From an archaeon (GTDB taxonomy: Archaea; Nanobdellota; Nanobdellia; SCGC-AAA011-G17; GW2011-AR17): a stretch of 64,000 nucleotides of DNA. The translations under genes and the position numbers were made by a program. Of the stretch, positions 1,067 to 35,424 are shown piece by piece; the first letter of the stretch is position 1; each line of letters starts with the position of its first letter. The stretch is taken from positions 7,617 through 71,616 of the forward strand of contig JBDRJY010000014.1 in NCBI GenBank assembly GCA_043814545.1. Reading direction: 5' to 3'. The notes under the pieces were generated by a model. The model worked only from the letters and a program-made list of their open reading frames with translations, did no database searches and was not told where the DNA came from.

Positions 1067-2398
1067 ATGAAAAAATTAATTTTGATTGGTTTACTTGTAA
1101 TACTTTGTGCAAGCATGGTTGCAGCGAACCAAATTGTTTATACAAGAGCAGACGAATTACGGATTGATTTGGTAAGTTACAATCCGTCGCCAGTACAACC
1201 AGGGGAAAAATCTAAACTAATGTTTGAATTAGTTAACCTTGATGAAGAAGCGTTAACAGATTTAACAATAACATTGATTGAAGATTTTCCGTTCTTTTTA
1301 GAAACAGGGGCAGATGCTGTGTTTGACTTTGATACTCTTGGTCCTGGTGAAAAAGAAAGTTTTTCGTTTCCTATCGTTGCAAACAGTAACATTGACGACG
1401 GTTTTTATACATTAAGGTTACAGTTTTATTCATCTAAAACTAACCAAATCACAAGTGAACCGTTCACAATTTATGTTCAAAAAGCTAATCGTGTTATTAG
1501 TCCGACTTCTGTTCAGGTTACATCTGTTGTAGAAGACGACGCAGGAAATTTTTACCCTGGCGAAGCTTCACAGGTTGTTGTCCATGTTCAAAACTTTGCA
1601 GCTTATCACATGAAAGATGTTTCAGTTAAATTAAACTTGACTGACTCGGCGATACCGTTCGCACCATACGGCTCAACGTCTGAGAAAAACATTCAAAGTG
1701 TTGGCATTGGCGAAGGCTACGATGTAGTGTTTGATATAATAGCGTTACCTGACGCAGAGTCAGGCATTTACAAAGTGCCTTTAACATTAGTTTATTATGA
1801 TGATCAAGGCACTAAGTATACTAAAGATAATTTGATAGGTTTAGTTATTGCAGCTATACCAGAATTACATTTTGAAATTAAAGATAACGAAATTTATTCA
1901 AAGCATGGTATGGGCGAAATTACTGTTGATATTATTAACATAGGGTTAACTAATCTTAAGTTTGTCACTGTGCAACTTAACGAACCTCTATTAGAATCAA
2001 GAGGAATTTTTGGTTATACAATTAAGGAATGGCCAGAGTTTAAACTGCTTTCAGAAGATAAAATTTATTTGGGAGATATTGAACCTGACGATGGTGAAAG
2101 CGTAGATTTCAAACTTAACTTAAAATCTAAGGACGACTTTATAACTTTACCTCTGACATTGACTTACCTTGACGCAAACAACAACGAGTATACTGAAAAT
2201 GTTGAACTTGAAGTTGAGATCTATAGTATGAAAGAGCTAGGCTTGGACAACGGTTCGTCATGGTTCACTATATTTATCTTAATTGTGTTAGCAGTTTACG
2301 CGTTTGGGTTTTGGCGATGGAGAAAAAAACATCCTAGGAAAGGTTTGTTGCAATATACAAAATTTTTATTTTCCTTTTTAGCAAGAAAAAATGATTAA
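1067..2398 (+). CDS. Secreted/surface protein with N-terminal signal peptide and C-terminal TM anchor plus basic tail (extracytoplasmic partner of the MacB-type ABC system)
   Basis: Hydrophobic N-terminus. The C-terminal segment WFTIFILIVLAVYAFGFWRWRKKHPRK is a TM anchor with a basic tail. The start abuts the ATPase stop and the end overlaps the permease start (ATGATTAA). Confidence 0.55.
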   Translation: MKKLILIGLLVILCASMVAANQIVYTRADELRIDLVSYNPSPVQPGEKSKLMFELVNLDEEALTDLTITLIEDFPFFLETGADAVFDFDTLGPGEKESFSFPIVANSNIDDGFYTLRLQFYSSKTNQITSEPFTIYVQKANRVISPTSVQVTSVVEDDAGNFYPGEASQVVVHVQNFAAYHMKDVSVKLNLTDSAIPFAPYGSTSEKNIQSVGIGEGYDVVFDIIALPDAESGIYKVPLTLVYYDDQGTKYTKDNLIGLVIAAIPELHFEIKDNEIYSKHGMGEITVDIINIGLTNLKFVTVQLNEPLLESRGIFGYTIKEWPEFKLLSEDKIYLGDIEPDDGESVDFKLNLKSKDDFITLPLTLTYLDANNNEYTENVELEVEIYSMKELGLDNGSSWFTIFILIVLAVYAFGFWRWRKKHPRKGLLQYTKFLFSFLARKND

Positions 2399-22036: not shown

Positions 22037-22741
22037 ATGAAAAGGGGCCAGGCTACTTTATTAATTCTATTCGGTTTAATTGTAGTTGTTCTGTTGGTTA
22101 GTACATATTATTTATTTTATCAAGTTGATGTTGTTGAAGAAGTTACTCAAACCATTGTTGAAACTGAACAACAGGAAGAAATTTTTTTAGAATTGGAAAA
22201 TTGTATTGAATTAGTTGTAGTGGATTCTTTGATTCAGATTGGCGAAAATGGTGGCCTTTATAACGAAATGAATTATTTAGCTAATGAAGGTATTAATAAC
22301 GTTCCTGACGAAACGGAATTAAATGAAGAATTTTTAGAATTTTTTGAAACTTATGTTCCATACTGTTTATACTACGTGGATTACCAAGATTATGAAATTG
22401 AAAGTGGCGATGTTAAATCCGATGTTACCCTAACTGACAATAGTGTTAAGTTAGAGATAACTTATCCTTTACAATTAACAGGAGAAAACTCGTTTAGTAT
22501 TGCTGAACCGTTTTACTACGAATATGATATTCCGTTAAAAACTTACCTTGATGTTGCTAACGAAATTGTGAATGAATATTTGGTTAATAATAGAATGTGT
22601 CTAAGCTGTATTTCAACTATTGGCACAGAAAACGATTTAAACATTAATATGTTGTTCGAGGAAGAAGGACAACTTATCATAATTGAAGATGAAAATGTCG
22701 ACTTTAGCGAGGGGGTGTACTATTTTGCGTTTATGGTTTAG
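22037..22741 (+). CDS. Type IV pilin-like protein with archaeal class III signal peptide (paralog of 42145-42897)
   Basis: N-terminus MKRGQ|ATLLILFGLIVVVLLV has a K/R-G-Q motif directly preceding a hydrophobic helix. There is clear full-length similarity to the 42145-42897 product, e.g. ...NRMCLSCISTIGTENDLNINMLFEEEG versus ...NKLCVSCITDITLDYNLEINFENLDEG. Confidence 0.55.
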   Translation: MKRGQATLLILFGLIVVVLLVSTYYLFYQVDVVEEVTQTIVETEQQEEIFLELENCIELVVVDSLIQIGENGGLYNEMNYLANEGINNVPDETELNEEFLEFFETYVPYCLYYVDYQDYEIESGDVKSDVTLTDNSVKLEITYPLQLTGENSFSIAEPFYYEYDIPLKTYLDVANEIVNEYLVNNRMCLSCISTIGTENDLNINMLFEEEGQLIIIEDENVDFSEGVYYFAFMV

Positions 22742-24707
22742 CTTTTTGCTTTTATTATTAATCGTCCCAGGGGTTTTTGCTGCTGAGTGTGACTTGGAAG
22801 AGTACGAGTATCAAGGCGAACTGGTTATGCGTTGCAATGTTAATGAAAATATTGAAATCTTAGGCAACGGGATATACCTTTCACCTGACGATACAGAAGT
22901 AAGAACAACTGGTAGTTACCCTTTCACGTTTCGTTTGTCTGAATCTATTCAAACTGAAGAAGGTTTTGAAATAGATGTAACAACTGTTGAAACAGAATGG
23001 GTTAAAGGAAATATTGGCGAAGACGGTATTTTTCAGGGTATATCTTTAGCCGACACTTTTATTTCTGATTATAACCTTCCAGAAAATTTTGAGTTTAGTT
23101 ATTATGTTGTTGATGACATATTTGAAATTGAACACTTTGATACGTTTGAAGGTTATGAGTACGAAGGCCATACGTTAAACATTGCTGAAGATGGGGTTAT
23201 AAAAATTCAAAATGTTGGCGGCGAATGGTTAATTTCTGGCTACAATTTTATGATTGACGACGTTCTTGTTAAAAGTTATAACTCTGCAACTTATGATGGG
23301 GTTAACGACAAATTTCTTTTTGATTTAGGCGGAGATTTTGAATATGCAGGAATAGATTTTTCGTCAGGGCAAGAATTTCAATTATTATCTTATGAAATTG
23401 ATGGTGTAAGCAGGGAAGATTTTCTTTATAATTTTTACCAGGGAGAACTTTTTACGAACGAAAACGATTATTTAATGTTATTAAATGAAGAAATCTCTCA
23501 AACAGAAATTGTACCTTTCATTTTAAACGGTGAAGGTTTAACTTTTGATGTTACATCAGACTCTCTTTTGTTTAACTTTGATGACCGAAACGATTATTTT
23601 AAGGGTGCTTTATCACAAGGTTCATTATTTTTTGAAGATTTAGGGACAGCACATGTTTACGGTAACGCAGAAATCCAAAACGGTCCGTACAAAACTTATT
23701 TTTATGAGGAAGGACGAACAGAAATGGAACTTCTGCAACGACCAGGTTATAATGTTTACAAAACCGGTTACGACATTGTCCCATTAAGTTTAGGTTATGT
23801 TAACGAAGATGGTTATGTTGAAGAAATTTTATACAAAGAATCTACTGCAAGTAGAGGGGTAGACAGTTTAACTGTTTCAACAGCTGAATTTTATGTTGGT
23901 GAAGATTACGTAACAGACGTTTCTGTAGAAACACTTTTAACGGAACCAGAAATTTCGACAGCGTTCTTAACTGATGAATCTTTTGAACCGTTGGAAGGTG
24001 AAGAACCAGAAGTAAGTTGTTTAGGTTTAAGTTTTGACGAATGCCTTTACAATCCGAAAGGCCACGGTTGTTTTTGGTCCGGCGGTTGTACAGAATGTAA
24101 TGTAATAATGTGCGAGATGTATAGTTCTCAGGAAGAATGTGTGAGAGACCCTTGTGGTTTTAACGATATCAGTTCAAAATGTTCGTTTGAAGGTGCGTGT
24201 ATGTCGGTAGATAGGATAGAAGATACTGTTGCAGCATCAGAGATTTTAGCTGTGGCAAATATATACAAGGAAGCTAGTGTCCATTACAGTCAAGGTAATT
24301 GGTTAATGGAAGAGCCAGAAGTGAACGGTTTAGATTGTTCAGGCTTTGCGCAAAAACCTTGGCACGAGTTGGGTGTAGCAATGCCGGCACGTGCGTCAAC
24401 ACAAGCAATGGTAACTCGGGATGATGGTACGACTGAAGTTAAAATGGAAAATTATTTTAACCATATTGAATGTAAAGATTTAAAACCTGCTGACATGCTA
24501 ATTTACCGTCCTAAACCAGGTGTTGAAAGGGATGGTCATGTAGTTTTGGTCAAAGAAAGTTATGGTAACAGTGGCGCAGTGATTATACATTCTAAAGGTG
24601 GAACAGGTGTTACTGAAGATTTTTTGATAGACGTTGAAAATGTTTATTCTCCTTTAGGGTTAGAGTTAAAGGATTGTTGGCGGCATAAGAGCGTTGTTTA
24701 TGAATAA
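22683..24707 (+). CDS. Large secreted Cys-rich protein with C-terminal NlpC/P60 cysteine peptidase domain
   Basis: Signal peptide present; an alternative in-frame TTG start at 22725 gives MRLWFSFLLLLLIVPGVFA|AEC. The C-terminus has NGLDCSGF (catalytic Cys), ...ADMLIYRP...DGHVVLV...AVIIHSKG (His triad region) and a Cys-rich linker. Overlaps the upstream pilin-like gene. Confidence 0.7.
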   Translation: MKMKMSTLARGCTILRLWFSFLLLLLIVPGVFAAECDLEEYEYQGELVMRCNVNENIEILGNGIYLSPDDTEVRTTGSYPFTFRLSESIQTEEGFEIDVTTVETEWVKGNIGEDGIFQGISLADTFISDYNLPENFEFSYYVVDDIFEIEHFDTFEGYEYEGHTLNIAEDGVIKIQNVGGEWLISGYNFMIDDVLVKSYNSATYDGVNDKFLFDLGGDFEYAGIDFSSGQEFQLLSYEIDGVSREDFLYNFYQGELFTNENDYLMLLNEEISQTEIVPFILNGEGLTFDVTSDSLLFNFDDRNDYFKGALSQGSLFFEDLGTAHVYGNAEIQNGPYKTYFYEEGRTEMELLQRPGYNVYKTGYDIVPLSLGYVNEDGYVEEILYKESTASRGVDSLTVSTAEFYVGEDYVTDVSVETLLTEPEISTAFLTDESFEPLEGEEPEVSCLGLSFDECLYNPKGHGCFWSGGCTECNVIMCEMYSSQEECVRDPCGFNDISSKCSFEGACMSVDRIEDTVAASEILAVANIYKEASVHYSQGNWLMEEPEVNGLDCSGFAQKPWHELGVAMPARASTQAMVTRDDGTTEVKMENYFNHIECKDLKPADMLIYRPKPGVERDGHVVLVKESYGNSGAVIIHSKGGTGVTEDFLIDVENVYSPLGLELKDCWRHKSVVYE

Positions 24708-25504: not shown

Positions 25505-26266
25505 TTACTTTTCTCTAATTTTTTTCAAAATAAAATATATTATTAGCAGTTGGATTAAAATTAATATTAAAATAATTAATAACAAATAATTGTATTCTTT
25601 TTGTTCAATAATTTCAAAAATATTTTCTGTTGACGCTTTTCCCCCGTCGTAAATTAATAAAATGTATAAGATATAATGTCCTACATCAATATCTTCAGGC
25701 AATGTAATTATTTTTATAAAATCTAAATTATTTCCTATAATCTTAGATTCTTTTTCTGTTAAAATAACATTATCATTTAAATCTATAATTGAATAATTTA
25801 ATGTTACGTTATTTGTTCCAGGTTCACCAAAGTTAGTTAATGATATGTTGATAAATAATATTTCGCTTAGACTAATTTTATTTTTAATTAGATTTGATTT
25901 TATATCAAATAGTGGTCCTTTAACAATACAGCTTTTATTTTCAATTGGCTTGTGTTTAGTTGTTTCACATTTATTTCTATCATGACAAATTCTTATCTCT
26001 TGATCATTATCACAATTTGCCCAATGTGTACAAGTCCAATTCTCTTGACATAGTAAGACGCGATTTAATATTCCGCTTCCGCGACCTGTAATTTCTTCTT
26101 CGATAGCTTCCCCAATTTCTTCTGTTGGCGCCGCTACAACTGTTAAAGAAACTTCACCAGTTGCCATGGCACTTATTTGATTATAAACAAAAAAACTGTT
26201 CATCGTTGTAATAATTAAGAAAACTATTATAAGAATCAATAAATTTTTATTTTTTAAATTATCCAT
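25505..26266 (-). CDS. Membrane-anchored surface protein (N-terminal TM/signal, Cys-containing ectodomain, C-terminal TM); last gene of the surface operon
   Basis: N-terminal hydrophobic segment and C-terminal YNYLLLIILILILIQLLIIYFILKKIREK. Confidence 0.4.
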   Translation of the reverse strand: MDNLKNKNLLILIIVFLIITTMNSFFVYNQISAMATGEVSLTVVAAPTEEIGEAIEEEITGRGSGILNRVLLCQENWTCTHWANCDNDQEIRICHDRNKCETTKHKPIENKSCIVKGPLFDIKSNLIKNKISLSEILFINISLTNFGEPGTNNVTLNYSIIDLNDNVILTEKESKIIGNNLDFIKIITLPEDIDVGHYILYILLIYDGGKASTENIFEIIEQKEYNYLLLIILILILIQLLIIYFILKKIREK

Positions 26267-26642
26267 TTTTAAAATTTATTTGTAATTTCCCTTCATATTC
26301 TCCATATGCTGCACTTTCAGGCACTGAAATTGAAACTTCGACAATTTTATTTTCATTTGGCATCATAACAAAATTATTTTCGGGTAATACAACCCAATGT
26401 TTTAATTTGCCTTTAGCCTTTAAATTAACATAAGAAATTTGATTAGAATTAGTAATGTTAACCATTCTAGTTCCAATACCTGCAGGTGTAATTGCCCCAA
26501 AATAAAGTGCATCATTATCAACATTAAATCCCGTATAATTTGCAACTGTTAAATACATGCCAATCTCATGATTTGGCGTATCTAAGGTAAGAAAAAAAAC
26601 TAAAGACGCAATTAAAATAACTAATATCAATTTAGCTTTCAT
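26259..26642 (-). CDS. Small secreted protein (signal peptide)
   Basis: Likely start is the MKAKLILVILIASLVFF Met within the tracked ORF 26259-26681. Tightly packed in the operon. Confidence 0.4.
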   Translation of the reverse strand: MKAKLILVILIASLVFFLTLDTPNHEIGMYLTVANYTGFNVDNDALYFGAITPAGIGTRMVNITNSNQISYVNLKAKGKLKHWVVLPENNFVMMPNENKIVEVSISVPESAAYGEYEGKLQINFKNG

Positions 26643-27762
26643 TTTTACGCCTCTTAAGCATTCTGTATACAAAAATTGCAATGATTATAATTAAAACTCC
26701 AATTATTACTAAATTCCAGGAGAAAATATTTCTTTTAACTTGAATTGGAATGTTTGTTTCCATTGATTTATCTGCAAAATATAAAGTTGTGTGTAAAATA
26801 TAATCACCTACATTAACATTAGTCGTATCCCAATAAGCGTTAAGATTTTTTTCTAATAAGGGCTTAAGTTCAATAGATTCAGTTTTTATTATCCCAATTT
26901 CTTGATTATTATCTAAGATTTGCAGTTCAGCATAAACATCTGTAATTTTTTCATTCCATAAACTTTTTAACGAAATTTCAATTTTATTAATTGTATTTAC
27001 TTGAAAGGCTGTAGGAACAATCTTGAGGATTTCAATAAGCAAATCTCCAATTTGGAAACTTTTTTCTGTTTCAATACTTTCTTCATCAAAATAAACTTTA
27101 GCTTTTACGATATATTCACCGGCGCTTAGATCTGTAGGTGTCCATTTTGTCGAAATTTCACCTGATTCTTTTGTATTAATTTTTATACTGTTTGTAGTTA
27201 ATATCGCAACTTCAGTACCATTAGAATCTGTAATTCTGATTGTTGCATCAACATTATTTAAATTTTCAGTACCTAAATTTTGTACGTCAAGTGTTATTTC
27301 TGTTTCTTTATTCAAATTAGTTTTTTCAATAGAAAGTTTAGTAGAAATATATTTTCCAGGGTAAGGGACAAGAATAAGAAACTGTGATTCTACGCCTGTA
27401 ACTGCTCCTACACCGCCTAAGTTTTCTGGAATAGCTTCTACAACACCTATTCTTGTATCATAAATTCCTGGTTTTTCAATGTTTTCAGGCAAATTAACTT
27501 CTACCACAAAACTTTTAATTTCGTTTTCGTTAAGCGTTGTTGAAGTTTCAGAAAGACTCACATATCCAGCTAACTCTCCTTTTGTATACATCTGAACAGT
27601 TGTCGGATTTTCTCTATTAATTATATTGTAAGTATATGTAGAATCTAAGTTTGGTTCAAAATTAACAGTGACGCGGCTGGGACTAATCCCTATAGCTAAT
27701 CCGCTTTTTGTAACTAATAAAATCAAAATTCCGAAGATTATAATTTTAATTATTTTGTTCAT
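26632..27762 (-). CDS. Cell-surface protein with CARDB/DUF11-like beta-sandwich repeats, signal peptide and C-terminal TM anchor with basic tail
   Basis: Signal peptide present. Repeated ...QNLGTENLNNVDATIRITDSNG... NxG-type motifs. C-terminal VIIGVLIIIIAIFVYRMLKRRKNES. Confidence 0.5.
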   Translation of the reverse strand: MNKIIKIIIFGILILLVTKSGLAIGISPSRVTVNFEPNLDSTYTYNIINRENPTTVQMYTKGELAGYVSLSETSTTLNENEIKSFVVEVNLPENIEKPGIYDTRIGVVEAIPENLGGVGAVTGVESQFLILVPYPGKYISTKLSIEKTNLNKETEITLDVQNLGTENLNNVDATIRITDSNGTEVAILTTNSIKINTKESGEISTKWTPTDLSAGEYIVKAKVYFDEESIETEKSFQIGDLLIEILKIVPTAFQVNTINKIEISLKSLWNEKITDVYAELQILDNNQEIGIIKTESIELKPLLEKNLNAYWDTTNVNVGDYILHTTLYFADKSMETNIPIQVKRNIFSWNLVIIGVLIIIIAIFVYRMLKRRKNES

Positions 27763-28352
27763 TATGATTCGTAAGCAGTGAACACTAAGTTTTCACTTTT
27801 TAATCCGGCTGGTTCATCGCCAGGAGGATTAATCAAAAGTTCAATCTGAACTTCGTCATTTGTGTCAACATAATTAAATTCGCAAACAGCTACTATTGGG
27901 TCAGTGCCAGGAACATTTGTCCATGTTATGGTGCTACAAGCAGGATTCCCCGGAACACCTTCACCAGCAACACTAGCAGCAAATTGAAAAGAACTTGTGT
28001 TATCTCCTCCACCAGTCCCGTTAAACAATGGCGTACTGTTTACATCTCTTGCGATTGTAAAATTAACTTCAACACTACCATCATTTCTTATTAAAAATGG
28101 GACAGGATTATTATCAGTAGTATTATCAGTCCCTCCAGCTGTAATATTTCCGAAATTAACATTATTTGTAACAAGAGTTATCTGTGCTACTTGTAACACA
28201 TTAACTTGTGCTATACCAACAGGCATACCTGTAATACTGTTGAAACCAGGTATATTCCAGTTAAAAATGAGAATAAAACCAACTAAAAGAATAATAAATA
28301 ATTCTATTCCAATCCTAATTTTGTTTTGTTTTGGCATTTCATAATTAATCAA
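27762..28352 (-). CDS. Small secreted Thr/Asn-rich protein, paralog family member 1 (conserved C-terminal ...EPAGLKSxxxxFTA motif)
   Basis: N-terminal hydrophobic segment after a charged n-region (..KQNKIRIG|IELFIILLVGF, possibly class III-like). The C-terminus GDEPAGLKSENLVFTAYES is shared with the 28349 and 31598 products. Confidence 0.5.
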   Translation of the reverse strand: MINYEMPKQNKIRIGIELFIILLVGFILIFNWNIPGFNSITGMPVGIAQVNVLQVAQITLVTNNVNFGNITAGGTDNTTDNNPVPFLIRNDGSVEVNFTIARDVNSTPLFNGTGGGDNTSSFQFAASVAGEGVPGNPACSTITWTNVPGTDPIVAVCEFNYVDTNDEVQIELLINPPGDEPAGLKSENLVFTAYES

Positions 28353-28909
28353 GCTTGCGTTGCTGTAAATGTTACAGTTGAACTTTTTAATCCGGCTGGT
28401 TCAGCATTAGGAATTGTGACCCCTATATCAACTTCAACTTGATCTCCAGTATCGGTAAAGGGAAGATCTGCAATTATTAAAATAGGATTACCGCTTGATG
28501 ACATGTTTGTTAAATTTACAATTGATCCAGTAGGACAACTAATTTCTCCACTACCGCAGGCGAATTGATAAGAGCTATTTGGATTTGGAGCTGTTGTAAA
28601 TATATCAGTTGCTTGAATTGTGACATTTACATTTACAGTCCCATCATTTTGTAATTGAAACGGCGCCGGACTATCATTAAGAGTATCATTATTGACATTG
28701 TTATCCATTGGTCCAAAATCGATAGAAGCGAGTGGTAACGAAATATAAGTTGTTGCAGTTACAGTAACATTTGCTACACCTGTAGGTGTAGAGGTTTGCG
28801 CTCCTGTAATAAGAGAAATACTTTCTTTATTTGATATAAGAACACAACTTCCAATAGTTAGCAGGAGCATGATAAAAATAAAAAATTTGAGTTTTAAGTT
28901 AATTTTCAT
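28349..28909 (-). CDS. Small secreted Thr/Asn-rich protein, paralog family member 2
   Basis: Signal peptide present. The C-terminus NAEPAGLKSSTVTFTATQA is shared. A 4-nt overlap with the downstream gene indicates translational coupling. Confidence 0.5.
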   Translation of the reverse strand: MKINLKLKFFIFIMLLLTIGSCVLISNKESISLITGAQTSTPTGVANVTVTATTYISLPLASIDFGPMDNNVNNDTLNDSPAPFQLQNDGTVNVNVTIQATDIFTTAPNPNSSYQFACGSGEISCPTGSIVNLTNMSSSGNPILIIADLPFTDTGDQVEVDIGVTIPNAEPAGLKSSTVTFTATQA

Positions 28910-29153
28910 TTAATACCTCCTCAAATTTGATGGCGTCATTTTTTGTTTCAAAGTTATTTGATGTTTGAGGATTAACATATAATTGTACCTTGCCAGAATT
29001 TGTAGTATCTGAAGACCTAACATTTGTTTGATTAGAAACCAACCCCAAAATTAAAATAATTACTAAAAATAAGATTAGAAGAACTAAAACTTTTTTATTT
29101 ATTTGCATCCCCCTTTTACCCCCTTTATTTTTAAGATTAAATATAGCTTTCAC
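28899..29153 (-). CDS. Small membrane-anchored protein (about 70-84 aa)
   Basis: MQINKKVLVLLILFLVIILILGLV is an N-terminal TM followed by a short polar tail. Confidence 0.35.
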   Translation of the reverse strand: MKAIFNLKNKGGKRGMQINKKVLVLLILFLVIILILGLVSNQTNVRSSDTTNSGKVQLYVNPQTSNNFETKNDAIKFEEVLNEN

Positions 29154-29201
29154 GCATTTAAAGGTATAGATTAATTTTCAAACTGAATCATCATTAAGAA
29201 G

Positions 29202-29690
29202 TTAAAGTTTTAAACTTATTAGTTCAAAAAAGGAATCAAATATAGTCTTTCTTTTCCAAACAATTTTATTTTTTCCATCATAATATTGGCTGGTAGTAAT
29301 GCTATTATTAGGAATATTTAATATATATTTAACAGTTTGACTTTTGCCTGGTTCAAGATAAAATACAATTTTGTTCTTATAACTTAATTCATCTATATTA
29401 TAAGTTAGCCACTCTGCCATAGGCCTATCACTTGTAATTATAATTTTCATTGGATATGGATAAAGGTTATTAAAATGCATATTCCGATAAGCACTTAACG
29501 AATTTATAGGGATGTTTCCAAAATGCAGTTTATTTTCATCAAGATTTAAACTAATATGGTCATCTTCTACAATATTAACATCCATGGGGTAATATATTGT
29601 TTCTTCAATTAGAACTTTGAAGTTTAAAATTAACGCAGTACCCAAACCAATTATAAAAATTATTACGAAAATTAAAATGATTTTTTTCAT
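29202..29690 (-). CDS. N-terminally membrane-anchored protein (162 aa)
   Basis: MKKIILIFVIIFIIGLGTALIL followed by a soluble domain. Sits in the operon. Confidence 0.4.
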   Translation of the reverse strand: MKKIILIFVIIFIIGLGTALILNFKVLIEETIYYPMDVNIVEDDHISLNLDENKLHFGNIPINSLSAYRNMHFNNLYPYPMKIIITSDRPMAEWLTYNIDELSYKNKIVFYLEPGKSQTVKYILNIPNNSITTSQYYDGKNKIVWKRKTIFDSFFELISLKL

Positions 29691-29694
29691 GATT

Positions 29695-30846
29695 TCACCT
29701 TTTCTTTCTTAGTAGGACAATAAGGAGGATTAGTGTTATTAAAAGTAGCCCGCTTGATGCAATCAAAGCTACCACTATCCAATCTTGGTTTTCAAAAATA
29801 AGATTATTTCCTTGATATTCCTCAACCTTGACTTCAAATTCACTTACTGTTTCTATCTCATCATAAGACAATTTTATTTTCAAAGTATAATTGCCAGGCA
29901 TTATATCATTTAAATCTAAACTTAAAGACAAATCTTTTTCACTAATAGCATTAAAAATAAATGAGTTAAGATTTGTTTTTGTTATCAAAGAAGATTCATC
30001 ATATAACCCAACTTCAATTTCAACATCTAAATCTTCAATCCAATAATTAAATGTTTTTAACGTAATAGTATTGATAACTTGACTATTTAATTTTTTTGGT
30101 ACGAGATCTAAAATTTCAATTTCTTTTTTTGCAATAATAAAATTTGCAATGTTTGAGGAACTTTCTTCCTTATCGTATTCTGTATATAAAACTAAATTAT
30201 AAAGGCCCAGATCCATAGCAGTTGTATCGGTTGACACTAATACGGATTCACTTGAATCAGGAAATAAATAATTCAAAGATTCAATTTCAACTTTTTTATT
30301 AAAACCTTCATCATTTGTTATTTGAAAATAACCGTCTACTGTGTTAATAACTTCTGTACCTATGTTACTGATTGTAGCTTTTAGTTCTGCAAAATCTCCT
30401 ACATTTTCAATTACCACTTCATCTATTTCTATTTTCAAAAATTTATCCGGATAAGGTGCATTAGTTGTAATAGGTATTTTCAGCGCTACAGTTGCGCCGA
30501 TATCTCCACTTGATCCAAATGGGACTAGATAAAATTTAATTAAAGCAATCTGCACGTCCCCAAATTCATTAAGTTCAGGTATAGTTAAACTGAAATCTAC
30601 ATCTTCACTTTCATAAGCTCCAACAAGAATTTTATCTGATGGAAAATTAAAGTATTCTTCATAATCGCTTTCAAGGGTAATTTCAATTATACTTTCTACT
30701 GCTAATTCATTTGTAACTGTTAGCGTAAACTCTTCTATTTCTCCTGGAGCATATCCTATGTTTATTTTTGCAGGATTAATTAACAGTGCATTTACAGAAA
30801 TAGATAAAATGGCTAAAAATAATATTATTATAATAATTTTTTTCAT
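29695..30846 (-). CDS. Cell-surface protein with CARDB/DUF11-like repeats, signal peptide and C-terminal TM anchor with basic tail
   Basis: Signal peptide present. ISNIGTEVINTVDGYFQITNDEG NxG motifs. C-terminal IVVALIASSGLLLITLILLIVLLRKKR. Confidence 0.5.
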   Translation of the reverse strand: MKKIIIIILFLAILSISVNALLINPAKINIGYAPGEIEEFTLTVTNELAVESIIEITLESDYEEYFNFPSDKILVGAYESEDVDFSLTIPELNEFGDVQIALIKFYLVPFGSSGDIGATVALKIPITTNAPYPDKFLKIEIDEVVIENVGDFAELKATISNIGTEVINTVDGYFQITNDEGFNKKVEIESLNYLFPDSSESVLVSTDTTAMDLGLYNLVLYTEYDKEESSSNIANFIIAKKEIEILDLVPKKLNSQVINTITLKTFNYWIEDLDVEIEVGLYDESSLITKTNLNSFIFNAISEKDLSLSLDLNDIMPGNYTLKIKLSYDEIETVSEFEVKVEEYQGNNLIFENQDWIVVALIASSGLLLITLILLIVLLRKKR

Positions 30847-30868
30847 CTTTTACCTCTTTTATAATAAA

Positions 30869-31426
30869 TTATGTTAAAGTACGTTGCAGATTATCATATC
30901 TATTAAATTTCACTCTTGAAATTTTGTTTTTAAGATTATCAATCATAAAATGAAATAACTCCGAAGGGTTATTTTTGATTAAACTAGTGTGGGAAAAAGT
31001 AAATAGTTCTTGAGTTTCGATAAAATTATGAAGATTTTGTTTTTGTTTTTCAGAATGAAAAAATTTGTCTAATTCTGGCAAATTTTTAAAACCATAGAGC
31101 AATATATGACTTGAACTACCTTTTGGAATGCGGTAAATATTGATAATTTGTGGAACTTGTAATAATTTTTTCTCAATTTCAACTTGTCCTTCCTTTTTTC
31201 CTTCATTTGTTAATTTAGTTATTGCTAAAGCAAAAGTTTCGATTCCTAATTTTGCATAATTTAAATTTAAAGTGTATGAATCTATAATTATACATTCTAA
31301 TTTTCTTCTAATTTTACCAACAGCGACACTTGAAATAGCTAATTTTGATGCAATTTCACTATCAGAAATTCTCGAATTTTCAAGTAATAATTTTAAAGTT
31401 CTTTTTTCATTTTTAGTTAACTTCAT
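30869..31426 (-). CDS. Transcriptional regulator with Lrp/AsnC-type N-terminal HTH; first gene of the surface-protein operon
   Basis: MKLTKNEKRTLKLLLENSRISDSEIASKLAISSVAVGKIRRKLE matches the AsnC-type HTH. The C-terminal domain of about 130 aa is unassigned. Confidence 0.55.
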   Translation of the reverse strand: MKLTKNEKRTLKLLLENSRISDSEIASKLAISSVAVGKIRRKLECIIIDSYTLNLNYAKLGIETFALAITKLTNEGKKEGQVEIEKKLLQVPQIINIYRIPKGSSSHILLYGFKNLPELDKFFHSEKQKQNLHNFIETQELFTFSHTSLIKNNPSELFHFMIDNLKNKISRVKFNRYDNLQRTLT

Positions 31427-31597
31427 TGTGCGAGGCCTTTAACTTATTAATCAAATAGGCTATTATAGTTTATAAATCTAACGTTTATTTTTTTAACTTT
31501 TCTTTAACCATTTTGTTTTACATTTAAGCCACGACTTTAAATCTATGGAAGATTGTATCAGTTTTTAAATTAATTTAAGTAAAGGGGGTAAAAAAAC

Positions 31598-32209
31598 TTG
31601 AAAAAAAAATTTGTATTGGTCTCTTTATTATTGGTGACCTTTTTGTGTGCTGTTACAAATGTAATGGCAGCAACAGATGACGCAACTATAACATTAACTC
31701 AGGCAGGTTCAGCTGGAATCACCTTACCAGTTAGTGTTTTAGGATTTGGTAGTGGGTATTATAACGCAAGTTGTACCGTGGATTATTCAGAACTGGATTC
31801 TTTTAGTAAGAATAGTGCATGTTGGATAAATACTACGGATTTCTTGGCTACGGATACTTACCATGTTATTGAAAATAGTGGTAGTTCAGTTTTGAATATT
31901 ACAGCAGATACAGATAAGTTTAACGCTGAAAATTTATTCTGTAGTGGTGTAACTTGTCCTGGTACAACGTCTGCAGAAATTGCGATACAATCGCAGCAGA
32001 ACGAAACAGGATCCTGTAACACGGCTTTAACGACTCCATACGAAAAAATACTGGATGATACAAAAGAGTATCCTACCGGCCTTTGTGATGAATTAAATTT
32101 CCAAGACAGTAAAGATACAATAAGGGTTTACTACAGGTTTAGAGTACCAATAGATGCGCATGCAGGTGCGAAAACATTGACTGTGACCTACGAAGGTATT
32201 GCCGTATAA
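31598..32209 (+). CDS. Small secreted Thr-rich protein, paralog family member 3 (TTG start)
   Basis: A GGGGGT SD lies 7 nt before the TTG start. Signal peptide MKKKFVLVSLLLVTFLCAVTNVMA. The C-terminus ...HAGAKTLTVTYEGIAV is related to the 27762 and 28349 C-termini. Confidence 0.5.
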   Translation: MKKKFVLVSLLLVTFLCAVTNVMAATDDATITLTQAGSAGITLPVSVLGFGSGYYNASCTVDYSELDSFSKNSACWINTTDFLATDTYHVIENSGSSVLNITADTDKFNAENLFCSGVTCPGTTSAEIAIQSQQNETGSCNTALTTPYEKILDDTKEYPTGLCDELNFQDSKDTIRVYYRFRVPIDAHAGAKTLTVTYEGIAV

Positions 32210-32242
32210 GAGAAAGATAATCTGTATAAGAGAATAAAACAA

Positions 32243-32271
32243 TTTTTTTTTTTTAAGTTTCAATTTTTTTT
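32243..32271 (+). terminator. Oligo-T tract (12 T then 7 T), archaeal-style intrinsic terminator after the 31598-32209 gene
   Basis: aatttttttttttttaagtttcaatttttttt lies 34 nt after the stop codon. Confidence 0.4.
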
Positions 32272-32459
32272 AAATTTTCAGATTCTTTTTTAGGTGGTTC
32301 AACTATTGTTACTCCAACAATGCCAGAACCGCTTTGAGATATGGAAACTTCCTTCATACCCATATTTTCTATACTAGAAAGAATAAAAATACTCCCTAAA
32401 GCAATAGTAATTAATAAGAAAAAAATTAAGACTAAAATTAAAAGATTTTTTCCTTTCAT
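32253..32459 (-). CDS. Small single-TM protein (68 aa)
   Basis: MKGKNLLILVLIFFLLITIALGSIFIL hydrophobic N-terminus. No homology recognised. Confidence 0.3.
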   Translation of the reverse strand: MKGKNLLILVLIFFLLITIALGSIFILSSIENMGMKEVSISQSGSGIVGVTIVEPPKKESENLKKIET

Positions 32460-32500
32460 CCAAATTTATTACTGTTTAGAAAATTTAAATATCTTTTGTT

Positions 32501-32947
32501 TTAAATCTTAAGTTGCCTTTCTTTAGGAACCATATTATGGATTTTACCATCTTTTAACCGACCACACCCAAAAATATCTTTATCATGTTGAATTAGTACA
32601 TAAGGTCCTTCCTCTTTAGTCTTAGATTCAATATCTTCGCCTTTCATCCACTCTTCAATTTCCTTAGAATTTAATGAAACAATATTTTTTTTAGCTTTAA
32701 TCATTTGTGAACCTTCAATGCTAGGACGAAACCCATTTTTCTCTAGCTTACCAAAATACATACCAATACGATTAGTTTTCATTTTTTCCAATTCAATTTG
32801 ATCCAAAGCTTTAGATATAAGAAAAATTTTATCTTTATTGTTTTTTAGAAAACCAAGATCTAACTTTTCTTTAATACCAAACTGTTCTTCAATCTGTTTA
32901 TAGATTTTTTTCACATCACGAGTGTTAAGGATTTGATAATTTCGCAT
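32501..32947 (-). CDS. Hypothetical protein, possibly PUA-domain / Nip7-like
   Basis: 148 aa. The C-terminal GPYVLIQHDKDIFGCGRLKDGKI segment is reminiscent of a PUA fold. Weak evidence. Confidence 0.3.
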   Translation of the reverse strand: MRNYQILNTRDVKKIYKQIEEQFGIKEKLDLGFLKNNKDKIFLISKALDQIELEKMKTNRIGMYFGKLEKNGFRPSIEGSQMIKAKKNIVSLNSKEIEEWMKGEDIESKTKEEGPYVLIQHDKDIFGCGRLKDGKIHNMVPKERQLKI

Positions 32948-32979
32948 ATGAAAAAAGGAAGAAAAGAAGTTAATAAACT

Positions 32980-33711
32980 TTACTCTACAGTATAATAAAC
33001 TCTTCGCCGATCTTTACCTTTATTATCAGATTTTAAACCAACTATTTTACCAATTTCTTCAATATTCTTAACATGGGTACCACCGCAAGCTTCTTTTGCA
33101 AAACCTTTAATGTCAACGATGCGAACGTCTTTAATATCTTCAGAAAAACCTTTGGCTAAGGTAGTAAATTTATCGCCTAAGATTTGTTTAGCTTCTTCTA
33201 AAGGAACTAAAGTTAGAGTAACAGATAATTTTTTAGCAATAACTTCGTTAGCTTTCTCTACATACTCTTTAAATTTTTCTTTATCATAATTTTCTAAAGA
33301 GAAATCAATACGTGATTTTTCTAAACCTAACTGGTTACCAGTAATTTTAGCGCCAGTTTCTTTTAATATTACGTTAGCTAGAATATGTGCAGCAGTGTGC
33401 AGCCTCATAAACATATGTCTGCGTTCCCAATCAATTTTTCCGGTAACTTCGTCACCTTCATTAAGACCTTCATCAACTTCATGACTGATATTGTCGCCAA
33501 ATTTTCCAACAAAAACAACTTTAAACTCTTTATCATCAGATTTACGTACTAGGACACCAGTGTCATACGGCTGACCGCCAGAGTTAGGGTAAAAAGCAGT
33601 TTTATCTAAGACAACAAACTTACCATTGGTTACAGTTACAACTTTTGCGTCAAATTCTTTCAAATAACACTCAAGTAAATATAAAGCAGGATTCATTTTT
33701 ATTTTATTCAC
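32980..33711 (-). CDS. alaX: Alanyl-tRNA editing protein AlaX-M (Ser/Gly-tRNA(Ala) hydrolase)
   Basis: HTAAHIL zinc motif (HxxxH) and CGGTHV motif. The length of about 240 aa is typical of AlaX-M. Confidence 0.8.
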   Translation of the reverse strand: MNKIKMNPALYLLECYLKEFDAKVVTVTNGKFVVLDKTAFYPNSGGQPYDTGVLVRKSDDKEFKVVFVGKFGDNISHEVDEGLNEGDEVTGKIDWERRHMFMRLHTAAHILANVILKETGAKITGNQLGLEKSRIDFSLENYDKEKFKEYVEKANEVIAKKLSVTLTLVPLEEAKQILGDKFTTLAKGFSEDIKDVRIVDIKGFAKEACGGTHVKNIEEIGKIVGLKSDNKGKDRRRVYYTVE

Positions 33712-33741
33712 GATACTTTTATATATATACTTTTCTTTTCT

Positions 33742-35424
33742 TTGGCTGTTATGGAAGACAAGATTAGAGCTTTAGCATTAGAAAATGCTGTAAAATTTAA
33801 AGGTAAAGCTAATCCTAAATCAATCATGGGCCAAATTCTATCACAGGATAAAAATGTTAATCCTGGCGACGTTGCTAAAGAAGTTAACAGAATTGTAAAC
33901 GAAGTTAATTCTCTTTCATTAGATGAACAAAAGAAAGAATTAGATAATTTGGATCCTAAACTATTAGAGAAAAAGCAAAGGGAAGTTAAGGAAGGTTTAA
34001 AGGAGTTGAATAATGTTAAAGGCAAAGTTATAATGCGGTTTGAACCATCGCCTTCAGGACCGTTACATGTTGGTCATGCTTATACTGGCTGTTTAAATTC
34101 TGAATATGTTAATAAATATAAGGGCAAATTCATTCTAAGAATAGCTGACACTAACGCTGAAAACATTTATGTTCCCGCTTACAAATTGATTGAAGAAGAT
34201 GGCAACTGGTTGTTTGGTAATGTATCAGAACTTATAATCCAGTCAGATCACATGGACATTTATTATGAATACGCTGAAAAACTTTTTGATTTAGGTGTAG
34301 TATACGTTTGTGAATGTTCTGGCGATAAATTTAGAGAATATTCTAAAGAAAAAAAAGATTGTCCCTGTAGAAATTTATCTATTCAAGAACATACAAAACG
34401 TTGGAAAAAAATGTTTAAGGGTTATGAACAAGGTGAAGCAGTTGTAAGGTTTAAGACAGACATGCAACATAAAAATCCTGCAATGCGTGATTTTCCGTTG
34501 TTAAGAATCAAAGACGTTAAACATCCTAGGCAAAAAGATAAGTATAGAGTTTGGCCGTTGATGATATTTTCAGTTGCAATTGACGATGTTAACTCGAAAA
34601 TGACTCATATTATTCGGGCAAAAGATCATGCTGATAACGCAAAAAAGCAAGAATACATTTTCAAAGCTTTAAAATTTCCAATCCCTGAAACAGTTTTCGT
34701 TGGAAGAATTAATTTTGAAGGTTTTGAAGTTTCATGTTCTAAAACTAGAAAGAAAATTGAAGAAGGTTTGTACGACGGTTGGGACGATATTCGGTTACCG
34801 TTCATGCCAGCGTTAAGACGTCGCGGTTACAAAGCAGAAGCTTTCAAAAAATATGCAATTGCCGTCGGGGCGACACTTGCAGATAAATCTGTTTCAAAAG
34901 ACGATTTTTTTAAAAGTATTAACGCCTTTAACAAAGATGTAATTGATCCAGTATCACACAGGTATTTCTTTGTTGAGGATCCTAAAAAAATATTTGTAAA
35001 AAACGCACCACCTCAGAATTTAGAACTGGATTTACACCCTGATAATAAAAAAGGCGGTAGAATCTTTAAAACTCAGGAAGAATTTTTAATAACTAAACAA
35101 GATTATGAAGAATTAAAAGACAAAGTAATTAATCGTCTTATGGATTGTTTAAATTTTATAAAAATCGGCGACGATTTTAAGTTTCATTCGCAAGAATATG
35201 AAAAGTATAAAGGTTCTAAAGGCAAAATTATACATTGGGTGCCAATAGAAAAAAATGTTCAGGTAGAAATTCTTATGCCGGACAACACAATTAAGTCTGG
35301 TGTAGCTGAACAAGGTATAAGAAAACTTAAAGAAGGAGAAATCATACAATTTGAAAGATTCGGCTTTTGCAGGTTGGACAAAAATGAAAAAAATCTTTAT
35401 AAATTTTGGTTTGCACATAAATGA
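33742..35424 (+). CDS. gltX: Glutamate--tRNA ligase (archaeal type)
   Basis: MRFEPSPSGPLHVGHAY (HIGH region). The 560-aa length with an archaeal-type anticodon-binding C-terminus is consistent with archaeal GluRS. Confidence 0.85.
   Translation: MAVMEDKIRALALENAVKFKGKANPKSIMGQILSQDKNVNPGDVAKEVNRIVNEVNSLSLDEQKKELDNLDPKLLEKKQREVKEGLKELNNVKGKVIMRFEPSPSGPLHVGHAYTGCLNSEYVNKYKGKFILRIADTNAENIYVPAYKLIEEDGNWLFGNVSELIIQSDHMDIYYEYAEKLFDLGVVYVCECSGDKFREYSKEKKDCPCRNLSIQEHTKRWKKMFKGYEQGEAVVRFKTDMQHKNPAMRDFPLLRIKDVKHPRQKDKYRVWPLMIFSVAIDDVNSKMTHIIRAKDHADNAKKQEYIFKALKFPIPETVFVGRINFEGFEVSCSKTRKKIEEGLYDGWDDIRLPFMPALRRRGYKAEAFKKYAIAVGATLADKSVSKDDFFKSINAFNKDVIDPVSHRYFFVEDPKKIFVKNAPPQNLELDLHPDNKKGGRIFKTQEEFLITKQDYEELKDKVINRLMDCLNFIKIGDDFKFHSQEYEKYKGSKGKIIHWVPIEKNVQVEILMPDNTIKSGVAEQGIRKLKEGEIIQFERFGFCRLDKNEKNLYKFWFAHK

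Follow-up and report, generated by a model that had tools for sequence, protein, structure and literature searches.

The window analysed here, a stretch of 64,000 nucleotides, carries a run of genes for small secreted and large membrane-anchored proteins, and it raises the question of what these proteins do together at the surface of a tiny archaeon of the symbiotic (DPANN) type. An earlier note described an eight-gene operon headed by a regulator, with every junction overlapping by 4 to 50 nt, and likened it to the subunits and adhesins of fimbrial systems. The open reading frames that it named are all present in the ORF list of the window (Table 1), but the co-directional genes number nine, with a divergent paralog in addition. 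Five of their junctions do overlap, by 1, 4, 8, 11 and 50 nt, whereas at the other three the genes stand apart, by 22, 4 and 48 nt. The 50-nt overlap shrinks to 11 nt if p140 starts at an internal ATG, and the 48-nt gap widens to 93 nt if p84 starts at ATG 29108, which its homologues suggest is likely its true start.

Table 1. Genes of the cluster, with positions in the window
Feature	Positions	Strand	Character
Regulator (Lrp/AsnC-like HTH), 185 aa	30869-31426	-	Lineage-specific; outside the conserved module
Large protein #1, 383 aa	29695-30846	-	Paralog of the 376-aa protein, same architecture
p162, 162 aa	29202-29690	-	N-terminally anchored; divergent p140-like partner of the 383-aa protein
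p84, 84 aa	28899-29153	-	Small, N-terminally anchored; gene 1 of the six-gene module
Subunit A, 186 aa	28349-28909	-	Signal peptide and ~150-aa pilin-like Ig "handle" domain
Subunit B, 196 aa	27762-28352	-	Paralog of A; separate orthologous group kept across DPANN lineages
Large protein #2, 376 aa	26632-27762	-	Proposed membrane-tethered chaperone/anchor (WxLIP-like)
p140, 140 aa	26259-26681	-	Single Ig domain, N-terminally anchored
p253, 253 aa	25505-26266	-	Both ends anchored; final gene of the module
p203, 203 aa	31598-32209	+	Divergent transcription; Cys-rich (7 Cys); distant third handle paralog
68-aa ORF	32253-32459	-	Possibly p84-like (TM segment and "SGIVGVTIV" strand); tentative

The cluster consists of a six-gene core module (29153 to 25505) and an extra large/small pair (383 + 162). 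An N-terminal hydrophobic segment is present in all nine non-regulator proteins, p203 included, and the 376-, 383- and 253-aa proteins have a C-terminal transmembrane (TM) segment as well, as had been claimed for the two large ones. The regulator fits less well. Its matches to Lrp/AsnC-type NCBIfam models (E 1e-7 to 2e-9) fall far under the curated cutoffs, that to Pfam HTH_24 reaches 21.2 bits (cutoff 21.9) and that to HTH_AsnC is likewise weak. It does not head a conserved operon: its orthologue is found only in the nearest relative (loci L001/L002) and there runs divergently from the module.

The module itself is conserved as a unit. Its order, an ~80-aa anchored protein, A, B, an ~380-aa three-Ig TM protein, an ~140-aa Ig protein and an ~250-aa protein, is kept in MAGs of Nanoarchaeota, Aenigmatarchaeota, Woesearchaeota, Undinarchaeota, Micrarchaeota and Pacearchaeota, and of 29 non-redundant loci 23 have a large gene directly after a handle gene. 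The handle either makes up a protein by itself or forms the very C-terminal end of giant DPANN proteins of the beta-helix/laminin-G type (named examples come from Pacearchaeota and Micrarchaeota), which carry Laminin_G_3, Beta_helix and FG-GAP domains. In 56 of 56 such proteins, 400 to 4,458 aa long, it ends 0 to 9 residues from the C-terminus, and 55 of these domains group with subunit type A. Genes for handle-bearing giants adjoin the same module in several genomes, and in several relatives a second large gene, akin to that for the 383-aa protein, directly follows the giant adhesin gene; loci L016 and L019-L021 read giant, ~163 aa, large, p84-like, handle, large, p140-like. A profile search of 286 window ORFs found no giant adhesin; the module here stands without an adjacent giant and has instead the 383 + 162 pair, p203 and a lineage-specific Lrp-like regulator.

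The two large proteins are paralogs (24% identity, E 6e-16). Both exceed the cutoff of 28.9 bits for PF11797 (WxLIP_HBD/DUF3324), the 376-aa protein at 37.1 bits and the 383-aa protein at 33.8 bits, and 10 of 13 homologues match this family too. They had been called CARDB/DUF11-like; CARDB is a marginal match to the 376-aa protein (23.5 bits, cutoff 22.7), DUF11 is unsupported, and PF11797 is the better Pfam match for both. Besides its signal peptide and C-terminal TM helix, the 376-aa protein has three Ig domains, the N-terminal one PapD-like and the other two DUF3324-like. Its first domain has a long hairpin with a disordered tip, in which the pattern KPG.hD.RIG..E is followed by a variable Gly/Ser loop and [VI]GA..GVE.Q..I.VPYPGKY, and the low-confidence loop 114-119 of the model falls within this conserved hairpin. 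In a structure search the large protein came closest, among solved structures, to the E. faecium WxL-interacting protein and next to fimbrial chaperones. Given this PapD-like/WxLIP-like fold of the partner proteins, the fimbrial subunit/adhesin analogy of the earlier note is apt.

The three small secreted proteins that the note grouped as paralogs are related to different degrees. Subunits A and B are clear paralogs (31% identity, E 6e-25, BLAST), with identities of 47-62% within the A group, 48-57% within the B group and 35-44% between groups. BLAST aligns A with p203 over 40 C-terminal residues only (E 2e-4); the handle profile, however, aligns along the whole of p203 (hmm 10-190, E 5e-11 in a search of the 286 ORFs of the window), and p203 is thus a real but distant paralog. 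Subunit A is rich in Thr, Asn and Ser and has seven N-x-S/T sequons. The shared C-terminal motif is real: across 19 sequences P167, E170, G173 and K175 never vary, and D169, A172, S177 and A183 hardly do. Handle residues 154-184 match NPCBM_assoc (best E 4.5e-4), and in CARDB/NEW3-type Ig domains the counterpart of the "PAGxKS..V.FTA" motif is the last hairpin; alone the motif is no evidence of a donor strand. The SCPU-like domain that had been suggested did not appear, SCPU and DUF4402 being unmatched apart from a single member at E 0.63. No Pfam family covers the handle domain, which belongs to an unannotated family with 2,504 matching clusters at E<=1e-3.

The predicted structures of the subunit and of the large protein are of monomers only, and three of five AF2 models of the subunit scored below 60 despite an alignment deeper than that of the large protein. 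An Ig-like fold is supported, and it is pilin-like: the best Foldseek match to the subunit model is TLP-1a (E 8.8e-4), followed by PapA, FimF/G, PapE, CsuA/B, the S. acidocaldarius thread subunit and the Pyrobaculum bundling pilin, so that the top matches are almost all donor-strand pilins.

In p84 (no Pfam or NCBIfam family) a hydrophobic segment at residues 15-45 is followed by a conserved "[ST]GxVxL[YF]V" strand and a second strand "LNV[VI]", and its homologues, of 63-86 aa, lie directly upstream of subunit A in many loci. Residues 76-124 of p140 match the large-protein (A2) profile (hmm 46-95, E 1e-6), and by this match its Ig domain is a homologue of the one at the N-terminus in the large proteins; its Pfam matches are weak (WxLIP_PGBD E 0.037, DUF7524 E 0.012), and a p140-like gene directly follows the large gene in many loci. 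Iterated profiles link p162 (hydrophobic segment at residues 1-29) and p140 reciprocally at E 1e-29 to 1e-42; pairwise BLAST gives E 0.037. In p253 an N-terminal TM segment that bears the strand motif "TGEVSLTV" is combined with a six-Cys region, a single Ig domain and a TM helix at the C-terminus. The C-terminal half of p253 aligns with the part of the large-protein profile that covers the third Ig domain and the TM helix (hmm 250-378, E 4e-9), and in relatives the module ends in p253 homologues of variable length. The 68-aa ORF reached the p253 N-terminus (3e-13) and p84 (2e-4) by jackhmmer, matches that were lost at a stricter threshold. A post-TM motif, [ST]G-x-[VA]-x-[LV]-x-V, is common to A, B, p84, p253 and the 68-aa ORF.

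We favour, with rather more confidence than doubt, the reading that this is a membrane-tethered DPANN surface-display complex on the Csc/WxL and chaperone-subunit plan, in which strand complementation would join the parts. Csc/WxL clusters are found in Lactobacillales and Bacillales, where CscA has the architecture DUF916-DUF3324-TM and CscD is a short LPXTG protein. CscA/WxLIP has 320-380 aa with a signal peptide, Ig domains and a C-terminal TM segment, CscB is a small WxL protein made up of the domain only, CscC is a large WxL protein with lectin-type domains and a C-terminal WxL domain, CscD is a very short anchored protein, and the commonest Gram-positive cluster has one WxLIP together with a pair of WxL proteins (PMC1534035, PMC9772566, PMC10599100); an AlphaFold prediction has the WxLIP hairpin completing the WxL sandwich (PMC10599100). 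CscA thus resembles the 376/383-aa proteins, CscB resembles A and B, CscC the giant proteins with their always C-terminal anchoring domain and CscD p84; the one-plus-two set resembles A, B and one large protein, and the predicted hairpin completion is the mechanism that may operate here. The differences are that the archaeal host has no peptidoglycan, so that the proposed role in binding peptidoglycan cannot apply; that the large protein has three Ig domains rather than two; that the short protein sits on an N-terminal TM segment rather than an LPXTG signal; that the conserved p140-like and p253-like genes have no Csc counterpart; and that the adhesins reach 4,458 aa.

Chaperone-usher systems, with PapD/FimC chaperones, FimA/PapA pilins and the two-domain adhesins FimH/PapG, share with this module the pilin-like fold of the subunits, a pilin-type domain at the adhesins' extreme C-terminus, a long variable-loop hairpin that ends the first domain where PapD has its donor G1 strand, and a mostly conserved basic residue near the mature N-terminus. 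They differ in that here there is neither usher nor outer membrane, that the "chaperone" has a C-terminal TM helix and extra Ig domains, and that the module matches neither PF00345 nor PF02753 nor any fimbrial Pfam family. We lean, short of conviction, towards an archaeal Csc/WxL counterpart or an usher-less chaperone/pilin system that would tether subunits and giant adhesins. All parts would be exported by Sec, and the large protein would be held in the membrane by its own C-terminal helix. The hairpin of its N-terminal domain would capture the handle by beta-strand complementation, as the PapD G1 strand binds a pilin or as the WxLIP hairpin is predicted to insert into WxL. The outcome would be a non-covalent attachment of the small subunits, and in relatives of giant adhesins, to a peptidoglycan-free cell, with A and B as a platform or short stalk and p84, p140 and p253 as accessory anchored strands or domains.

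Several observations count against this reading. The handle lacks WxL motifs and did not match the WxL domain PF13731 at E<=10 in 19 members, and tryptophan is absent from subunit A. The N-terminal domain of the large protein has neither a PF06030/DUF916 or PapD Pfam match nor the NQIDKxxxYFDLK motif, and by sequence the large-protein profile fails to retrieve the WxLIP chain from the PDB. The "GISPSR" motif has a basic residue that is not wholly conserved, handle and large genes vary in number from locus to locus, and the window lacks a giant adhesin.

An unlikely but serious alternative is that the proteins build a true fibre by donor-strand exchange, an archaeal pilus comparable to threads, bundling pili and tafi. 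Once its signal peptide had been cleaved, subunit A would polymerise by way of the N-terminal "TPTGxANVTV" strand, and B would serve as an adaptor or a minor subunit. A giant with its C-terminal handle would be the tip adhesin, like FimH and PapG, and the base would be capped and anchored either by the large protein with its TM anchor or by the p84 strand, the role that has been proposed for TafF. Archaeal filaments of this kind include the S. acidocaldarius threads (Saci_0406), the Pyrobaculum bundling pili (AbpA, TasA-like) and the haloarchaeal tafi, or Tat-dependent bundling pili (TafA/E/C/F, DUF1102 relatives). They too have Sec- or Tat-exported, glycosylation-rich Ig-fold subunits, and tafi are modelled with an Ig base protein, TafF, on a C-terminal TM helix and a laminin-G tip. 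TLP-1a/b are environmental fibrils of freshwater (CryoSeek, PDB 9ikj/9ikk) whose source organism is unknown; their Ig-like protomer is likewise completed by donor-strand exchange, but it has ~236 aa, identity is 8-10%, TM-scores are only 0.34-0.42 and nothing ties TLP-1 to DPANN. A fibre would accord with the dominance of donor-strand pilins, archaeal thread and bundling-pilus subunits among them, in the Foldseek results, with the handle's place at the giants' extreme C-terminus, as for the pilin domain in two-domain tip adhesins, and with the common post-TM motif, which would fit strands meant for a single type of groove. The stretch that follows the predicted cleavage site is, moreover, strongly conserved although confidence in its model is low (pLDDT 46-62, residues 31-50), the low scores of three of the five AF2 models point the same way, and tafi offer an archaeal precedent, a donor-strand fibre whose base protein has a C-terminal TM segment (PMC11821415). 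The giants, however, align over the "NxTV" first strand too (profile start 33-52 in most), so that this strand may be part of the domain rather than a free donor. Two equally conserved subunit groups with one large protein per module look rather like a complex of fixed stoichiometry, and the large gene that adjoins each giant adhesin gene suggests one-to-one capture. The known archaeal filaments are described as chaperone-free, whereas a PapD/WxLIP-like protein is present here; the pilin-like domain of TafC is N-terminal, whereas the handle is always C-terminal; and no filament has been observed here, no Tat motif is present and no sequence homology to Saci_0406, TasA/AbpA or DUF1102 was found.

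It is improbable that these Ig-fold envelope proteins form no more than a loose set, such as CARDB-like glycoproteins or a coat of the S-layer or glycocalyx kind, whose genes lie together only through co-expression and which has no specific chaperone/anchor-handle pairing. The folds are all generic Ig-like sandwiches, to which many unrelated Ig proteins score nearly equally, CARDB is matched too, profile-profile comparison finds no relation between handle and large protein (probability 1.2%), and DPANN envelopes are poorly known; but the strict gene order across phylum-level DPANN lineages, the obligatorily C-terminal handle in all the giants, their adjacency to the module and the four-component match to Csc/WxL (PMC1534035) argue for a specific complex. 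A type IV pilus-like, archaellum-like or sortase/archaeosortase-dependent system is very improbable, since beyond the general theme of small secreted archaeal proteins with N-terminal hydrophobic segments the nine ORFs of the cluster, every one of them accounted for, include no ATPase, platform protein or prepilin peptidase (Pfam, NCBIfam), the N-termini are of Sec type, with a hydrophobic core and then small residues, rather than class III signal peptides, and no PGF-CTERM or LPXTG-type sorting signal follows the handle, which ends at the protein's C-terminus.

The membrane-tethered display complex would be the probable way in which these DPANN cells fasten adhesins to their own surface, since the same pilin-like domain ends the giant adhesins encoded beside it in relatives.

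Nine consecutive minus-strand ORFs run from 31426 down to 25505 of the window, which has a G+C content of ~31%, with p203, the third small secreted protein of the cluster, lying divergent from the regulator side. The earlier note had described eight genes, all overlapping; this is only approximately right, because there are nine ORFs and their junctions comprise five overlaps (1 to 50 nt) and three gaps (4 to 48 nt). Every cluster protein except the regulator has a hydrophobic N-terminal segment, and a second, C-terminal one is found in the 376-, 383-, and 253-aa proteins. No tRNA or Rfam match was found in or near the cluster when the window was scanned.

The small subunits A and B are clear paralogs (31% identity, E 6e-25). 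By BLAST, p203 matches them over its last 40 residues only (E 2e-4), but the profile of their family, whose ~150-aa domain we call the handle, matches it end to end (E 5e-11); p203 is therefore a distant third paralog, as the earlier note had proposed in counting three. The two large proteins, of 376 and 383 aa, are also paralogs (E 6e-16). A profile match shows that p140 is homologous to their N-terminal domain and that the C-terminal half of p253 shares homology with the last of their Ig domains and the TM helix; p162 is linked to the p140 family through iterated profiles only. The 68-aa ORF convergent to p203 has a TM segment and an 'SGIVGVTIV' strand; it resembles the p84 family and the N terminus of p253 and, judged from its sequence, could be a further small protein with an anchored strand.

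Features of the window and of related loci
Feature	Location	Strand	Length (aa)	Description
Regulator	30869-31426	-	185	HTH protein
Large protein	29695-30846	-	383	Paralog of the 376-aa protein
p162	29202-29690	-	162	Linked to p140 family
p84	28899-29153	-	84	First gene of module
A	28349-28909	-	186	Small handle subunit
B	27762-28352	-	196	Small handle subunit
Large protein	26632-27762	-	376	'DUF3324 domain-containing' (NCBI name)
p140	26259-26681	-	140	Related to large-protein N-terminal domain
p253	25505-26266	-	253	Related to large-protein C-terminal part
p203	31598-32209	+	203	Distant handle paralog
68-aa ORF	32253-32459	-	68	Possibly p84-like
443-aa ORF	1067-2398	+	443	Ig match to p253 profile
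643-aa ORF	14647-16578	+	643	Upstream of RelA/SpoT homologue
RelA/SpoT homologue	16625-18556	+	643	Full-length long form
674-aa protein	22683-24707	+	674	Secreted, Cys-rich
Closest relative, L001	12334-14355		673	Position of 674-aa gene
L016	24385-24891			~163-aa family
L018	16431-16910			~163-aa family
L019	19846-20337			~163-aa family
L020	19128-19622			~163-aa family
L021	20398-20883			~163-aa family

Exact-protein look-ups and pattern scans (the latter yielding 9 loci from genomes and 15 from metagenomes) gathered 36 related loci, 29 of them non-redundant, which were annotated with iterated profiles. Exact protein matches assign the window to a 134-kb contig of a metagenome-assembled archaeon (locus tags ABIF40_). 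The nearest relatives of the window are MAGs labelled Nanoarchaeota, Aenigmatarchaeota, and Woesearchaeota (DPANN), and in these, as in Undinarchaeota, Micrarchaeota, and Pacearchaeota MAGs, the same order recurs: a p84-like gene, A, B, a large gene of ~380 aa, a p140-like gene, and a p253-like gene. B sometimes lies behind the p140-like gene in relatives, or is absent. In 23 of these 29 loci a large gene comes directly after a handle gene, and most of the remainder are truncated by contig ends. In the window this six-gene module corresponds exactly to 29153 down to 25505, so that the claim of a cluster conserved as a unit holds for this stretch across DPANN lineages. A and B form separate orthologous groups, with identities of 47 to 62% within A, 48 to 57% within B, and 35 to 44% between them.

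The operon headed by a regulator, also part of the earlier description, did not survive this comparison. A regulator orthologue occurs only in the closest relative, which shares the flanking GluRS, AlaX, and HhH-GPD genes, and there it is divergent from the module; the regulator is a local addition and not a defining part of the module. It matches HTH_24 just below the cutoff (E 2e-4, 21.2 bits versus 21.9), HTH_AsnC at E 0.003, and NCBIfam Lrp-type models over nearly its full length at E 1.7e-9 to 1.7e-5, far below their curated cutoffs; a Pfam search gave no match to PF01037, the C-terminal RAM/AsnC_trans_reg domain. Window positions 25505-35424 are syntenic with 4145-11981 of L001, the locus of that relative, through GluRS, AlaX, a ~150-aa PUA-domain protein, the regulator, the module, and an HhH-GPD glycosylase. 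In comparison with L001, the window has its regulator inverted and has gained the 383- and 162-aa genes, p203, and the 68-aa ORF; judged from the sequence, this resembles a recent expansion of the locus.

No Pfam or NCBIfam model matches the small subunits, and word-indexed homologue searches were shallow (18, 10, and 12 matches); the size of the family became visible only in an exhaustive profile search, which returned 2,504 clusters at E<=1e-3. About one third of the best 150 matches are long proteins (400 to 4,458 aa), and in all of these the handle lies 0 to 9 residues from the C terminus. Named examples of these giants come from Pacearchaeota and Micrarchaeota; their N-terminal parts contain beta-helix, laminin-G/ConA-like, FG-GAP, and Ig domains, and 55 of 56 giant terminal domains group with subunit type A. 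In the AF2 model of A (best pLDDT 83, with three of five models below 60), the signal helix is followed by a sandwich of eight strands. A Foldseek search of the PDB ranks donor-strand pilins highest (E 9e-4 to 0.05, TM 0.3 to 0.5): TLP-1a comes first (E 8.8e-4), ahead of PapA, FimF/G, PapE, CupE, and CsuA/B, and the S. acidocaldarius thread subunit and the Pyrobaculum bundling pilin are matched as well. These similarities are of fold only: Pfam and PDB profile searches found no match of the handle family to Saci_0406, AbpA/TasA (Peptidase_M73), or DUF1102, and the PDB sequence search with the handle profile gave nothing relevant. TLP-1a/b (PDB 9ikj/9ikk), likewise similar at fold level only, are environmental freshwater fibrils (CryoSeek) of unknown organism, which raises the question of whether ultra-small archaea or bacteria that get through 0.22-um filters are the source of some of them.

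The motif to which the earlier note drew attention, '...PAGLKS..V.FTA', is truly conserved in the small subunits as 'P.DEPAGxKS.TVTFTA'. In alignments it coincides with the final hairpin of NEW3/CARDB-type Ig domains, and an analogous '...P...G.Y...' ending is present in the large, p140, and p253 sequences; the motif marks the fold and is not in itself evidence for a donor strand. Because it always ends the protein, it is perhaps a docking edge. SCPU-like domains, also suggested for the paralogs, were rejected, as SCPU/DUF4402 matched one member only, at E 0.63.

The large proteins provide the other half of the module. All five AF2 models of the 376-aa protein are robust (pLDDT 86 to 87) and consist of three beta-sandwich domains and a terminal helix (residues 347-375); hydrophobic segments lie at 1-27 and 344-371 in this protein and at 1-26 and 355-381 in its paralog. 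Both exceed the gathering score of PF11797 (DUF3324/HBD; 37.1 and 33.8 bits, respectively, versus 28.9), which is also found at E<0.1 in 10 of 13 large-protein homologues. The CARDB/DUF11-like label of the earlier note therefore needs amendment: CARDB is marginal, and DUF11 was rejected, with one homologue at E 0.054. PDB sequence searches with a single large protein and with the large-protein profile returned CARDB-domain proteins or noise and no WxLIP. Among 20 homologues, the mature N terminus is conserved as A[IL]G[IV][ST]P[SGA][RK], and so is a hairpin with which the first domain ends, 'KPG.hD.RIG..E' and '[VI]GA..GVE.Q..I.VPYPGKY' on either side of a variable Gly/Ser loop. The sole low-confidence internal stretch of the 376-aa model, residues 114-119, falls within this loop. 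A profile-profile comparison found no relation between handle and large protein.

Large genes also accompany the giants. In four long contigs (L016, L019, L020, and L021) the genes that come after a giant gene, on its own strand, encode in order a ~163-aa TM protein, a large protein, a p84-like protein, a handle protein of ~210 aa, then a second large protein and a p140-like protein. The p84-like slot was detected by profile in L020 and L021, where p253-like genes end the series, and is occupied by a ~67- to 69-aa ORF in L016 and L019; in L017, a 959-aa handle protein adjoins a complete module. A profile search found no giant handle member within the 64-kb window, in which the 383-aa gene does represent the second large protein, with p162 as its p140-like partner. 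The ~163-aa proteins, N-anchored and bearing 'PLVIAP.D ... YYWKV.G', lie directly 3' of giant genes and 5' of their large gene; we rejected them as p162/p140 homologues, for they are a separate conserved family, and the window has no member.

Several genes elsewhere in the window deserve mention. The long RelA/SpoT homologue, in what appears to be a DPANN MAG, carries HD_4, RelA_SpoT, TGS, and ACT domains at E 1e-43 to 1e-12; the ORF ahead of it has the same length and no Pfam match. Long RSH enzymes are unusual in archaea, and horizontal acquisition or mis-binning is possible. At its C terminus the 674-aa protein weakly matches NlpC/P60 (E 7e-4, below cutoff), and its counterpart in the closest relative was matched by size and position only; if it is a cell-wall-hydrolase-like enzyme of a wall-less episymbiont, it could act on a host. 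The 443-aa ORF matches no Pfam family; its residues 138-252 match the p253 profile in the Ig region (E 3e-9), and it may encode a further Ig-type surface protein, one that lies outside the cluster.

How might these parts work together? PapD-type chaperones hold pilins by strand completion. The same principle emerges from an AlphaFold prediction for WxLIP, in which a disordered hairpin turns into a strand completing the WxL sandwich (PMC10599100). Csc/WxL clusters of Lactobacillales and Bacillales, most commonly with a single WxLIP plus a pair of WxL proteins, encode CscA/WxLIP (320 to 380 aa, with signal peptide, Ig domains, and C-terminal TM), small WxL-domain-only CscB, large CscC with lectin-type domains and an invariably C-terminal WxL domain, and a very short anchored CscD (PMC1534035, PMC9772566, PMC10599100). 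The DPANN module matches this plan component for component, and its large proteins likewise have the signal peptide, C-terminal TM helix, size, and DUF3324 domain of WxLIP. In contrast, their sequences lack the N-terminal DUF916/PF06030 domain with its NQIDKxxxYFDLK motif, and although a WxLIP would be expected to cluster with at least two WxL-domain proteins (PF13731, dual Trp-x-Leu motif), none of 19 handle proteins matches PF13731 (E<=10) and Trp-x-Leu motifs are lacking, A having no Trp at all. We thus rejected WxL family membership for the small subunits; the WxL role would instead be taken by an analogous handle domain unrelated by sequence. Nor does Pfam detect the PapD-family domains PF00345/PF02753 of chaperone-usher systems, and no large beta-barrel protein that could correspond to an outer-membrane usher is found among the cluster ORFs; to our knowledge, such archaea lack an outer membrane. 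By analogy, the cluster would work like Csc/WxL and chaperone systems without being a sequence-level member of either, its DUF3324-type domain excepted.

From the shared plan, the predicted WxLIP hairpin, and the PapD principle, we propose the large proteins as handle receptors. Tethered to the membrane, these would bind the handle domain through strand complementation, thereby holding the small subunits, and in relatives the giant adhesins too, on the membrane. Our analysis shows the folds, where the domains lie, and the synteny; both the interaction and its nature are what we infer. At its widest, and here we are tentative and lean toward doubt, this would be a hitherto undescribed, phylum-spanning, usher-less chaperone-pilin system of DPANN archaea, in which a membrane-anchored PapD/WxLIP-fold protein completes the handle Ig fold by donor-strand complementation as a general fastening of giant host-attachment adhesins and possibly of short fibres.

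Alternatively, donor-strand exchange may chain the subunits into a fibre that has the giant at its tip as adhesin and is anchored in the membrane by the large protein or by p84. Haloarchaeal tafi have been modelled with TafF as membrane anchor (PMC11821415), and among the archaeal donor-strand filaments considered here, no chaperone or usher could be identified for threads, and cannulae are reported to be free of chaperones (PMC9715654, PMC12518558). Pilins dominate the Foldseek list of A, the N-terminal strand of A is conserved yet poorly modelled, and a post-TM motif, [ST]G-x-[VA]-x-[LV]-x-V, is common to A, B, p84, p253, and the 68-aa ORF. The giants, however, align over the first strand too, the module has two equally conserved subunit types per large protein, and giant genes have an adjoining large-protein gene of their own. 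The core mechanism is common to fibre and receptor, the main difference being the number of chained subunits. A type IV pilus or archaellum was rejected on the N termini, which are Sec-like and not class III signal peptides, and on the lack of an assembly ATPase or platform gene in the cluster, and a sortase-type arrangement on signal-peptide type, gene content, and the lack of a C-terminal sorting signal.

Most DPANN archaea are obligate episymbionts, and their biology hinges on attachment to a host cell; their very large surface proteins stay on cells without a wall or known sorting signals. The cluster offers a testable answer for the display of giants: a new C-terminal handle domain (~2,500 clusters, no Pfam family) with a proposed cognate, membrane-anchored PapD/WxLIP-like receptor encoded beside it. 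Our full-text literature searches found no paper that links DPANN with DUF3324, WxL, or PapD-like proteins or that describes the handle domain. Receptor capture of the handle would extend a Csc/WxL-type surface complex, known to date from Lactobacillales and Bacillales only, to archaea and would supply the first candidate chaperone-like component of an archaeal donor-strand system. The usher-less chaperone-pilin system, if real, would connect, by evolution or by mechanism, Gram-positive WxL/WxLIP complexes, Gram-negative chaperone-usher pili, and the donor-strand filaments of archaea. The handle profile could serve to list the surface-displayed adhesins of any DPANN genome, and the module is of good potential interest for the attachment of DPANN archaea to their hosts.
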